In this document: one piece after another, positions 18,301 to 63,300 of the stretch
How the letters are laid out: the number at the start of each line of letters is the position of its first letter
Numbering within the stretch: position 1 is the stretch's first letter
Assembly (NCBI GenBank): GCA_032718475.1
Contig: JAUCBJ010006726.1
Coordinates: forward strand, 1 to 64,000
Direction: 5' to 3'
From: Nemertoderma westbladi
Lineage: Eukaryota; Animalia; Xenacoelomorpha
Length of the DNA: 64,000 nucleotides
Translations under genes and position numbers: made by a program
The notes under the pieces: model-generated
The model's database searches: none
What the model was told of the DNA's origin: nothing
Seen by the model: the letters and a program-made list of their open reading frames with translations, nothing else

Positions 18301-21300
18301 ACCACATTGTAGCACATGGTACCACATTGACGTACCACATTGTACCATATGGTACCACATTGACGTACCACATTGTACCACATGGTACCACATTGACGTA
18401 CCACATTGTACCACATGGTACCACATTGACGTACCACATGGTACCACATTGTACCATATGGTACCACATTGACGTACCACCTTGTACCACATGGTACCAC
18501 ATTGTCTTACCACATGCTACCACATTGACGTACTACTTGGTATCACACCACATGGTACTACATTGATGAACCATGGTACCACATTGACGTATCACATGGC
18601 ACCACATAGACGTACCACTTGGCACCACATAGACGTACCACATGGTACCACATTGACGTTCCACTTGGTACCACATTGACGTACCACATGGTACCACATT
18701 GACGTACCATGGTACCACATTGACGTACCACATTGTACCACATGGTACCACATTGACGTTCCACTTGGTACCACATTGACGTACCACATGGTACCACATT
18801 GACGTACCATGGTACCACATTGACGTACCACATTGTACCACATGGTACCACATTGACGTACCACATGGTACCACATTGACGTACCACTTTCTCCCACATG
18901 GTACCACATTGACGTTCCACATGGTACCACATTGACGTTCCACATGGTACCACATTGACGTACCATGGTACCACATTGACGTACCACATTGTACCACATG
19001 GTATCACATTGAAGTACCACATGGTACCACATTGACGTACCACATGGTACCACATTGACGCATTACATGGTACCACATTGACGTACCATGGTACCACATT
19101 GACGTACCACATTGTACCACATTGACGTACCACATGGTACCACATTGACGTACCACATAGTACCACATTGACGTACCATGGTACCACATTGACGTACCAC
19201 ATTGTACCACATGGTACAATGTGACACTGACCTACGAGCCTTCCTAGAGGTCGCCACCACAAGGGGTCCGGTCCACTCTTCGGCTACTTCCCATCCAAGT
19301 GACAGTGAAACCAGCAATGTTGTAAGAGGCTGAGATTCTTTTCGCCAACACTGGTGTCGCCATCAACACGACAGGCCACGAGCTGCTCGGCGGGTTGTTG
19401 GTACTGAGGAGTATCGCACCACTTTCATAGAAGAGAAGGCCCAGGAGTTCGCCGTGGAAGTGGATCGTCTCGCGGGGGTGGCAGCAGTGGACCCCCACTG
19501 TGCGTACGCGGGCCTCGCGTTTGGCCTTGCCTGTCGGTGGCGGTTCATCACCCGTGTTGTAGCCACCGCGCTAGCCCATCTCACCCTGTTGGAGGAAGCT
19601 GTAAATCGATTCCTTTGCCGTCTCACCCATCGGCCTGCTATCTCAAAAGAGGAACGCCTGTTTCTCTCTCTGCCAGTCCGTGACGGGGGTATCGGCATTC
19701 CGGTGACCACTGACCTGTCACATCAGTTTACCAGCTCGTTTCGGGTCTGTGAGCCATTCATCAGAGGTCACACCGGATACAATGGCGCAGGTCCGGGAGA
19801 AACAAAAGAAGGTGGTGGGCAGATTGAAGGAATCGATGGAGCAGTCGATGGAAAAGAGAGAGGAAGTGTTGGGAAAGTTATCTCCTCCCCAGCGGCGGCT
19901 CCACGGACTGACCACCGAAAGGGCGCTTCTATCTGGGGCAACACCAAGCCACTCATCCTCCAGGACACCTACCTGGACAAGGGTGAATTCAGGGATGCCC
20001 CGTGCGCGCCTTTGGCCATACATCTGGTAAAACGGTTGGCGCACCGCCTGGCGGAGAAGCGAGAAACGCGGGATGCGGCGTTCATCACATGGGTTCGGCG
20101 AAAGTTGAACTTTGCGTTGTTGCGCTCGGCCCTCATGTGTCTCCGTGGACACCGGTCGGCTGCTAGACGACCCATTCATTGCACAAATTCAGTTGTAGAC
20201 ACAGCCATTGTGCATGCGAATGCGGATGTTGCCCCACCACCATAGACCCCAACGAGTGCAGACAAAACCGCGAAGGAACTGTATTGTTGAAACCGTTTTT
20301 GTAGAACATAAACTTCTACTTGTACCATATTCTATGAAATAGTTAATCTTCAAGTTTGTGTTAATAATCTAATCTATGCATATTAAAGTAATACATAGTG
20401 ATTGGAAGGAGCCCCTATCTGGGAACTGAAAAAAAACATGGTACCACATTGACCTACCACATGGTACCACATTGGCGTACCACATTGACGTTTTTATCGA
20501 GGAAATAATAAATAATATAGTGGGAGTTAATATTGTGTGAGTTTTTCCCTTATTTCAATAGATCTTATTCATCCTTCAACAATAAAAAAAACAATAAATA
20601 AACAACCCACCACCAAGGCTTTGTAATTTATAAGACTACGTAGTCCTCCCAACAACAGGCGCATCGTTGGAGCCATTCCGCCGAATGCAGACACAATCAG
20701 TGAGATGAAAGTCGCCCGTTCTACCTCACCGATTCGATCCTAATGTCCATAGGTGTTACCGTGCCTCCTAGTGGTGCTCGTCGGCCGTTTCCATGTCATG
20801 TCATCGCCGTGTTCGTTGCTGCCAAAGGCTAAAATATTGAAACATCTATGAATGAATACGCTCTCCTATTATCTATTGTTCTGTTTAATTATTCTACTAT
20901 TGTGGAAGTGACTACAACTATATTGTATTTTTAAGCTAGTTGTTAGTGTGTTATTTAAATATGTAAAGAAAAATTCAAACAAATGTGGCAGTTACTGTAG
21001 TGGGAGTTACTGTTATTGCAGATACGGCCATTCCCTTCTGGAGGAAGCTAGAGAGGAAAACGTAAAGATGCATGAATTGGTGGGTTCGCTACAGGAACAA
21101 CTGCGACTGTATGAGCAGGATAATACGGCGCTACAACACCAGGTCAAGCGCAAGGAGACAGAACAACAGGAACTGGCGTTGAGAAGGAGGGAGGATGCAT
21201 CAGCCAATCAGATCACTGCTATAGGTGGGTTGATAATAGGGTACTACACAGACCGGTCAAAGGTAAAGAGACAGAACAACAGGAACTGACGTTGAGAAGG

Positions 21301-60300: not shown

Positions 60301-63300
60301 TGGGAGCAATCTCTGAGATTATACAAGGAGAGAAGTAAGGTTAGTGTTGGGAACACTGGAGTACTGGATTCGGTTACGAGTACCTTGGGAGCAATCCCTG
60401 AGATTATACAAGGAGAGAAGTAAGGTTAGTGTTGGGAACACTGGAGTACTGGATTCGGTTACGAGTACCTTGGGAGCAATCTCTGAGATTATACAAGGAG
60501 AGAAGTAAGGTTAGTGTTGGGAACACTGGAGTACTGGATTCGGTTACGAGTACCTTGGGAGCAATCTCTGAGATTGTACAAGGAGAGAAGTAAGGTTAGT
60601 GTTGGGAACACTGGAGTACTGGATTCGGTTACGAGTACCTTGGGAGCAATCTCTGAGATTATACAAGGAGAGAAGTAAGGTTAGTGTTGGGAACACTGGA
60701 GTACTGGATTCGGTTACGAGTACCTTGGGAGCAATCTCAGAGATTATACAAGGAGAGAAGTAAGGTTAGTGTTGGGAACACTGGAGTACTGGATTCGGTT
60801 ACGAGTACCTTGGGAGCAATCTCTGAGATTGTACAAGGAGAGAAGTAAGGTTAGTGTTGGGGACACTGGAGTACTGGATTCGGTTACGATTACCTTGGGA
60901 GCAATCTCTGAGATTGTACAAGGAGAGAAGTAAGGTTAGTGTTGGGTGGGAACACTGGAGTACTGGATTCGGTTACGAGTACCTTGGGAGCAATCTCTGA
61001 GATTGTACAAGGAGAGAAGTAAGGTTAGTGTTGGGTGGGAACACTGGAGTACTGGATTCGGTTACGAGTACCTTGGGAGCAATCTCTGAGATTGTACAAG
61101 GAGAGAAGTAAGGTTAGTGTTGGGTGGGAACACTGGAGTACTGGATTCGGTTACGAGTACCTTGGGAGCAATCTCTGAGATTGTACAAGGAGAGAAGTAA
61201 GGTTAGTGTTGGGTGGGAACACTGGAGTACTGGATTCGGTTACGAGTACCTTGGGAGCAATCTCTGAGATTATACTAGGAGAGAAGTAAGGTTAGTGTTG
61301 GGTGGGAACACTGGAGTACTGGATTCGGTAACGAGTACCTTGGGAGCAATCTCTGAGATTATACTAGGAGAGAAGTAAGGTTAGTGTTGGGTGGGAACAC
61401 TGGAGTACTGGATTCGGTTACGAGTACCTTGGGAGCAATCTCTGAGATTGTACAAGGAGAGAAGTAAGGTTAGTGTTGGGTGGGAACACTGGAGTACTGG
61501 ATTCGGTTACGAGTACCTTGGGAGCAATCTCTGAGATTATACTAGGAGAGAAGTAAGGTTAGTGTTGGGTGGGAACACTGGAGTACTGGATTCGGTTACG
61601 AGTACCTTGGGAGCAATCTCTGAGATTATACAAGGAGAGAAGTAAGGTTAGTGTTGGGAACACTGGAGTACTGGATTCGGTTACGAGTACCTTGGGAGCA
61701 ATCTCTGAGATTATATACGGAGAGAAGTAAGGTTAGTGTTGGGTGGGAACACTGGAGTACTGGATTCGGTTACGAGTACCTTGGGAGCAATCTCTGAGAT
61801 TGTACAAGGAGAGAAGTAAGGTTAGTGTTGGGAACACTGGAGTACTGGATTCGGTTACGAGTACCTTGGGAGCAATCTCTGAGATTGTACAAGGAGAGAA
61901 GTAAGGTTAGTGTTGGGTGGGAACACTGGAGTACTGGATTCGGTTACGAGTACCTTGGGAGCAATCTCTGAGATTGTACAAGGAGAGAAGTAAGGTTAGT
62001 GTTGGGAACACTGGAGTACTGGATTCGGCTACGAGTACCTTGGGAGCAATCTCTGAGATTGTACAAGGAGAGAAGTAAGGTTAGTGTTGGGAACACTGGA
62101 GTACTGGATTCGGTTACGAGTACCTTGGGAGCAATCTCTGAGATTATACAAGGAGAGAAGTAAGGTTAGTGTTGGGTGGGAACACTGGAGTACTGGATTC
62201 GGTTACGAGTACCTTGGGAGCAATCTCTGAGATTGTACAAGGAGAGAAGTAAGGTTAGTGTTGGGTGGGAACACTGGAGTACTGGATTCGGTTACGATTA
62301 CCTTGGGAGCAATCTCTGAGATTATACAAGGAGAGAAGTAAGGTTAGTGTTGGGTGGGAACACTGGAGTACTGGATTCGGTTACGAGTACCTTGGGAGCA
62401 ATCTCTGAGATTGTACAAGGAGAGAAGTAAGGTTAGTGTTGGGTGGGAACACTGGAGTACTGGATTCGGTTACGATTACCTTGGGAGCAATCTCAGAGAT
62501 TGTAAAAGGAGAGAAGTAAGGTTAGTGTTGCCTTGGAGTGGTTGGGTTAGTCTACAAACTAAAACTGGTTTCGGTTTTATCATGAATATTTATTTGTTTA
62601 ATAGGCTTTGGGTTACATGTCGGCTAACGTTGAGTCAGACAGTCGTACTCTAGACAGACTGCAGTCTGATACCCGACTGGATGAGGGTGTTAATGAACTC
62701 CACGTGAAGATTATACGATGTCAAGGTCTTATGTGAGTCGGCTCATGTATCACAATAATTTGTATTGGTATGGTTTATGAATCTTGGGGGAGCAGTGGGT
62801 CACGGGATAAAATAGGACAAGGACATATTGCCATAAGCGCGAAGGGCCAATAGGAATGACCGAAATTCCACAAAGTTTATTAGATTATAGTCTAGTCTCA
62901 TGACTTTTGGGTTAGGTTTATTCAAATTTTGGTTTGGGCCGCCACTCTTAAGTAACCTGCGAGGTCTAGGAGAATGTATTCACGTTCTGGCGTATTCCAT
63001 TCCGGCTTCATAAGTTACTTGGTACCATAAATACCAATAAATAATATTTATTGGTTGAAAATACAATAAAAATTGAATGGGGGAATCTTTTAGGCTCGTT
63101 AGGACAAGGAATGCATGTTCACCATCACCACCATGGGTTATCTTCCATACTAAATTCCCAAATTGCCGCGGTTCCCATTTATCAACCAGTCAAGGATGAA
63201 AGCTTGGGTTGTGCTAGGCTAAAGAAATGTGTATATAGTAAAAAAAAACTGCATATGTTATCTGGTAATCATGTTATCGGTTTAAGGATAACTCAAAACG

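Follow-up and report, generated by a model that had tools for sequence, protein, structure and literature searches.

Why should an intron begin with tandem copies of the end of its own exon and of its own 5′ splice site? The question is raised by a 64,000-nucleotide stretch of animal DNA from Nemertoderma westbladi (GenBank assembly GCA_032718475.1, contig JAUCBJ010006726.1, positions 1 to 64,000), in which five introns of two genes on opposite strands, RPGRIP1L and MCM6, carry minisatellites whose unit includes the GT donor. This stretch, hereafter the window, is the whole of the material analysed; tandem arrays in it were called with Tandem Repeats Finder (TRF) and then decomposed into units. 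The arrays are a dense example of an already known type of repeat, and we consider it probable that they are passively tolerated duplications that a highly active minisatellite process has amplified.

Minisatellites spanning their own donors

The units of five arrays span the donor, at RPGRIP1L exons 5, 7, 12 and 13 and at MCM6 exon 3, and the five units are unrelated to each other. Each matches only its own locus in searches within the window, which rules out a single transposon family as the source. The exon 5 array (21137..21981, forward strand) has 7.5 copies of a 112-bp unit with ~84 exon bases (~75%); the authentic donor follows position 21224, with six additional identical TAG/GTGGGT sequences downstream (the slash marks the exon end). 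The exon 7 array (22626..24385, forward) has 26 copies, with a length of 65 bp in 20 units and of 76 bp in five, each with only 2–4 exon bases (~6%), and its donor follows 22628. The sequence GAG/GTGAGT is kept in only five downstream copies; the GT is missing from 15 of the 20 65-bp units, including those nearest the exon, the first intact copy lies at +260, and the 76-bp variant supplies another GT.

The exon 12 array is in two parts, the main one (49676..54519, forward) with 97 copies of a 50-bp unit and the remainder (59261..59560, forward) with six; ~36 bases of the unit (~72%) are exon, the donor follows 49710, and there are 85 identical CAA/GTAAGT sequences. Between the parts sits a 4.7-kb non-long-terminal-repeat retrotransposon, a long interspersed nuclear element (LINE; 54520..59260, forward), with ORF1, endonuclease, reverse transcriptase, a broken ORF2 and a TAA-rich tail, and with domain matches to RVT_1 (E=1.9e-22) and Exo_endo_phos_2 (E=6e-6, narrowly below its cut-off). 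The exon 13 array (59753..62530, forward) has 32 copies of 85/89 bp, with 81/85 bases exonic (~95%), and 31 identical AAG/GTTAGT sequences; its donor follows 59829, rather than 59824, and is not the GT that comes first at the end of the unit. The MCM6 exon 3 array (27815..30713, reverse) has 133 copies of 21/24 bp, six bases (~29%) being exon; the last exon base is 30708, and 124 copies of CAG/GTGGG lie downstream. Counted as 9-mers identical to the authentic donor, the downstream copies number 6, 5, 85, 31 and 93 for exons 5, 7, 12, 13 and MCM6 respectively. This layout bears out the initial annotation, which had described these five arrays.

The length of most units is not a multiple of three, and copies match one another at 92–96% (TRF). 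Variation within arrays is structured, with 36 distinct units among 95 in one case and 15 among 31 in another. The coding copy departs from the consensus by 3/74, 2/77 and 1/36 differences, where the means among copies are 0.67, 1.1 and 0.88; the departure, of the kind that concerted evolution confined to the inner copies would give, is clear only for exon 5. Each array-bearing intron keeps a unique 3′ part of 45–300 nt with its own acceptor, and the arrays have therefore extended introns that were already there (69, 82 and 316 nt once the extra copies are subtracted) and created none. Donor arrays can nevertheless make up most of an intron: that after RPGRIP1L exon 5 is ~69 nt minus the extra copies and 802 nt with them, and that after exon 13 is ~82 nt and 2,775 nt.

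Two further forward-strand arrays lie just past donors that they do not copy, much as had been noted at the outset: six copies of a 36-bp unit (12457..12678) start 15 nt past the exon 1 donor, and a degenerate 10/23/33-bp array (18113..19217) starts 69 nt past the exon 4 donor. A retroelement (19230–20435) lies inside the 23-bp array of intron 4, which resumes at 20436 after an A-run.

Presence of the MCM6 arrays in contigs of public runs

We compared assembled contigs of four public runs (X1–X4) with positions 30660–31795 of the window. In X1 and X2, both flagged as possible sources of the sequence, short-read contigs extend over unit-to-unit junctions in the 21-bp MCM6 array and in a neighbouring 29-bp array, and the far end of the former is reached as well. 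Four substitutions and an 8-nt insertion separate X2 from the window, so that it represents at least another haplotype. The MCM6 exon 3 array, being present in short-read contigs of two samples, is not an assembly artefact. The contigs concern this locus, where summed contig depth, which is not copy number, is ~120-fold higher on the 21-bp array than on unique sequence in X1 (2478 versus 20.7) and only ~3-fold higher in X2 (55.8 versus 17.8). The contrast bears on length differences between alleles, and the low value in X2 would speak for an artefact. For the RPGRIP1L arrays, the structured variants and the LINE that splits one of them, features read from the assembly itself, argue against an artefact, and we regard such an origin for the arrays as a whole as extremely improbable.

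Probable use of the first donor

Runs X3 and X4 carry the label 'DNA?', yet their contigs skip the 267-nt MCM6 intron 2 and leave introns without cover, and they thus behave as RNA. A 1,933-nt contig of X3 (depth 173) joins the first donor of MCM6 exon 3 (30708) to exon 4 (27480–27509), bypassing the 124 downstream copies, and the array is uncovered in X3 and X4; X4 stops short of the exon 3–4 junction. The first donor is therefore seen in use at MCM6 exon 3, in one run and in assembled contigs, which drop rare variants. Thirty-five of the 124 downstream copies would leave the reading frame open, so that the absence of array cover in X3 and X4 matters; transcripts using these copies would be expected to escape nonsense-mediated decay. 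A similar choice is made at an acceptor: the 29-bp array (91 copies, 31761..34386, reverse) stops 12 nt short of the MCM6 exon 2 acceptor and includes 70 units with pseudo-acceptor-like CCCCTAG and TAAC motifs, and both X3 and X4 splice exon 1 to the authentic acceptor, beyond the 70 CCCCTAG copies.

At the four RPGRIP1L arrays we infer that the first donor is likewise used. None of their 148 downstream donor-like copies preserves an open frame, and where exons 5, 7, 12 and 13 are joined to the next exon the first-donor protein lines up with eight homologues free of insertions. Joining from first donors yields gap-free proteins for both genes, of 843 codons in RPGRIP1L and 797 in MCM6. These observations support the proposal that the 5′-most copy is always the coding one.

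Relationship to known boundary repeats

The initial annotation put these arrays forward as an undescribed system, but the layout has been published, both as the 'mirages' of amphioxus and as human donor-spanning variable number tandem repeats (VNTRs) (PMC3087553, PMC3902484, PMC1557585). Mirages are exon-intron boundaries duplicated in tandem, described for Adh3, two globins (BflGb6 and BflGb9), troponin C and PGBD5; they are reported on donor and acceptor sides, with normal splicing (PMC3087553, PMC3902484). They share with the window arrays the copying of a gene's own exon-intron boundary, in units of 10–160 bp, in unrelated genes of one invertebrate genome, and normal splicing too has its counterpart here, at MCM6 exon 3. 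The differences, apart from lineage, are that four of the arrays here have 26–133 copies compared with 3–6 in BflGb6, that up to 95% of the unit is exon, and that the window arrays are at donors only whereas mirages occur at both sides of the junction. The acceptor-side mirage of BflGb6 (PMC3087553) also means that the suggestion that only donor-side duplications are tolerated does not hold generally, although the accompanying statement, that no array in the window copies an acceptor, is correct (0 of 17 acceptors spanned).

In the human examples, F7 intron 7 (37 bp, 5–9 copies), the interferon-inducible gene 6-16, CBS intron 13, LMNB2 and PDGF intron 4, the first unit lies across the exon-intron boundary and identical pseudo-donors follow it, as they do here. 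Mutagenesis of F7 showed that the identical pseudo-donors are functional, and yet the most upstream alone is chosen; the upstream donor is exclusive in F7, LMNB2 and PDGF, while the next two copies are also used in 6-16 and CBS (PMC1557585). The most upstream donor is also the one used at MCM6 exon 3, and probably at the RPGRIP1L arrays, and next-copy use of the 6-16 and CBS kind is not seen in the MCM6 exon 3 contigs. The human VNTRs are scattered single loci with up to ~25 copies, whereas the window has five of 18 donors spanned in 64 kb and two arrays that exceed 100 copies.

Human segmental duplications, too, contain variable internal tandem repeats where exons meet introns (PMC2812944), and the Rogers model, as cited in PMC3087553, proposes intron gain by tandem duplication; both resemble the present case in having introns remodelled by minisatellites at their borders with exons. 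The window arrays do not fit intron gain through the tandem duplication of a proto-splice site, as their introns have unique 3′ parts with their own acceptors. The accessible text of PMC10078293 does not address donor-spanning units.

Origin of the donor-spanning arrays

How might passively tolerated mirages of this kind have arisen? Each array is a locus-specific copy of its own junction, as the matching of units to their own loci shows, and likely started as an ordinary short duplication. The founding duplication may have formed by microhomology-mediated slippage or repair, for which clear microhomology of 5–6 nt between exon and array end is present in two of the five arrays (6 nt at exon 13 and 5 nt at MCM6 exon 3); Haber and Louis are said to have implicated short flanking repeats as minisatellite seeds. 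The dimer would then have been amplified by slippage and unequal exchange, presumably the same process that built the other arrays of the window, where arrays occupy 26,651 of the 64,000 bases (42%) and 12 of the 17 with at least five copies lie away from donors. Three non-donor arrays (14593–17341, 35932–36509 and 46891–48405) match dispersed sequence (at 39078–39153, 12748–12995 and 63125–63154), which suggests that mobile elements may have carried their seeds; since the donor units match only their own loci, seeds appear to come from any local sequence. The segment 12740–13040 resembles an inverted-repeat element.

When a duplication spans the point where a coding block ends on its 3′ side, the first copy stays whole, and a 34-bp duplication at the MCM6 stop codon has this geometry, in which the first copy works, with splicing not involved. 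At the arrays, the 5′-most donor would be used and the extra copies would be plain intron, as seen at one of the five and expected at the other four; duplicated junction copies are likely to be harmless, with splicing taking the first. The abundance of arrays at donors would then reflect tolerance, GC- and G-rich junctions, short ancestral introns, selection of the window and perhaps a modest mutational bias.

That abundance is a difficulty for passive tolerance. We collapsed each array to one unit and placed it at random under twelve null models, in which transposable-element intervals were set by eye; the window itself was chosen after the fact for looking odd, and the P values are uncorrected for that choice. 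Tolerance alone predicts no excess, and the five donor-spanning arrays, against 0.45–1.04 expected (P from 5e-5 to 0.002), therefore weigh against it, as they do in GC-matched placement (0.79–1.46 expected, P 0.0007–0.01), array GC being 0.35–0.58 compared with 0.34 in unique non-coding DNA. Three further observations count on the same side: the sense-strand G skew of +0.22 to +0.80 in all five donor arrays, compared with three of nine others in the RPGRIP1L span; the failure of the exon 5, 7 and 12 array junctions to show a clean microhomology; and RNA cover that reaches one of the five array junctions, in one run whose contigs drop rare variants.

Because donors had been singled out after looking, arrays at any splice junction were counted too, for which 1.1–2.25 are expected (P 0.003–0.012 unmatched, 0.02–0.06 GC-matched). 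Five of 18 donors and none of 17 acceptors are spanned, a borderline imbalance (Fisher two-sided P=0.045), and the zero is compatible with the 0.4–1.0 acceptor arrays expected. Within the window, then, the excess at donors is beyond chance under most of the nulls and borderline under the strictest, the GC-matched count over all junctions. Donors with and without arrays do not differ in strength (7.0 versus 6.9 matches of 9, P=0.87) or in exon-end GC (P=0.92), donor arrays do not significantly exceed the others in length (median 32 versus 16 copies, P=0.22), and no exact short duplication above 6 nt is present at the 13 array-free donors or the 17 acceptors. A literature search found no genome-wide test of donor enrichment, most subscription papers being beyond its reach.

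A mutational process that favours donors, for example if R-loops form or the polymerase pauses where exon ends are rich in G and breaks or slippage result, with tolerance and amplification following, would account directly for a 3.4- to 11-fold excess and for the donor-acceptor imbalance. It would also make sense of the two arrays that begin 15 and 69 nt from donors, of the two junction types of the exon 7 array, both of which return within a few bases of the donor, and of the G skew, which would fit R-loop formation; the origin of mirages is, moreover, called unclear in PMC3087553. Nonetheless we think this process unlikely, if worth entertaining, because the G-skew test is partly circular, donors and array exons being G-rich, and because the case comes from a single window picked post hoc in which the any-junction GC-matched null gives P=0.02–0.06. 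In addition, the breakpoints are not fixed at the donor but range from 2 to ~87 nt into the exon, none of the 13 array-free donors has an exact short duplication of more than 6 nt, and amphioxus has acceptor-side mirages (PMC3087553).

We find it much harder to credit the arrays with a selected function in the tuning of splicing, whether as decoy donors, as banks of enhancers, as alternative in-frame ends or through recursive splicing. An intact donor is present in most copies of four of the five arrays, 35 of the 124 MCM6 copies would yield in-frame extensions, and human 6-16 and CBS are reported to use the next two copies (PMC1557585). Intact donors are, however, explained by the recent homogenisation that the 92–96% matches indicate, most unit lengths are not divisible by three, and none of the 148 RPGRIP1L copies is frame-open. 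No RNA contig lies on the MCM6 array, one array has been interrupted by a LINE, and another has lost the GT from most of its copies.

Host genes and other features of the window

The RPGRIP1L (fantom) orthologue is represented by exons 1–15 (12318..63903, forward), with 843 stop-free codons, and runs past the window edge. Its product is 46–48% identical to four deuterostome fantom proteins (~850 amino acids), and exons 11–13 match Pfam C2-C2_1; a homologue search using exon 12 by itself gave no match. MCM6 (26503..35427, reverse; 797 amino acids), defined by Pfam and spliced contigs, is nested in RPGRIP1L intron 7 and is intron-poor, having four exons (35427–34819, 31748–31296, 31028–30708 and 27513–26503) and only three introns. 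It matches MCM, MCM_N, MCM_OB, MCM_lid and MCM6_C, and is at most 62–64% identical to named spiralian and deuterostome proteins, forming a long unplaced branch when 53 of 120 matches are used. In MCM6 intron 3 (27514–30707) the same eight bases, TCAG/GTGG, lie across donor and acceptor junctions alike, and the two-copy duplication at the stop codon (26440–26507) starts two bases ahead of the stop.

An intronless SLC6/SNF transporter gene (44869–46746, reverse; 625 amino acids; Pfam SNF E=5e-225) is nested in RPGRIP1L intron 11, and the window also contains several remnants of retrotransposons. An intronless open reading frame of 474 amino acids (1819–3243, forward) combines an apparent signal peptide and a Cys-rich N-terminus with acidic repeats and a hydrophobic segment at the C-terminus, and has no Pfam match at E 0.1. 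An (ACTAC)n pentanucleotide tract of 1.6 kb (8651–10287) is fused to a 21-bp minisatellite.

Implications

What stands out in this window is the density of donor arrays (5 of 18 donors) and their copy number (more than 100). They carry first-donor choice from the 5–25 copies of human loci to an invertebrate case with more than 120 identical donors, and exon-derived copies within introns will mis-map reads, which is a warning for annotation. We hold only as a tentative, rather doubtful proposition that a process coupled to transcription or splicing seeds duplications at donors, turning a quarter of the donors in repeat-rich regions into minisatellites with up to 130 decoy donors. If this were true, the genome would offer a natural test bed in which to study how mirages begin and how first donors are selected at five times human copy numbers; a true genome-wide donor bias, if shown, would bear on how mirages originate, linking splicing to local mutation.

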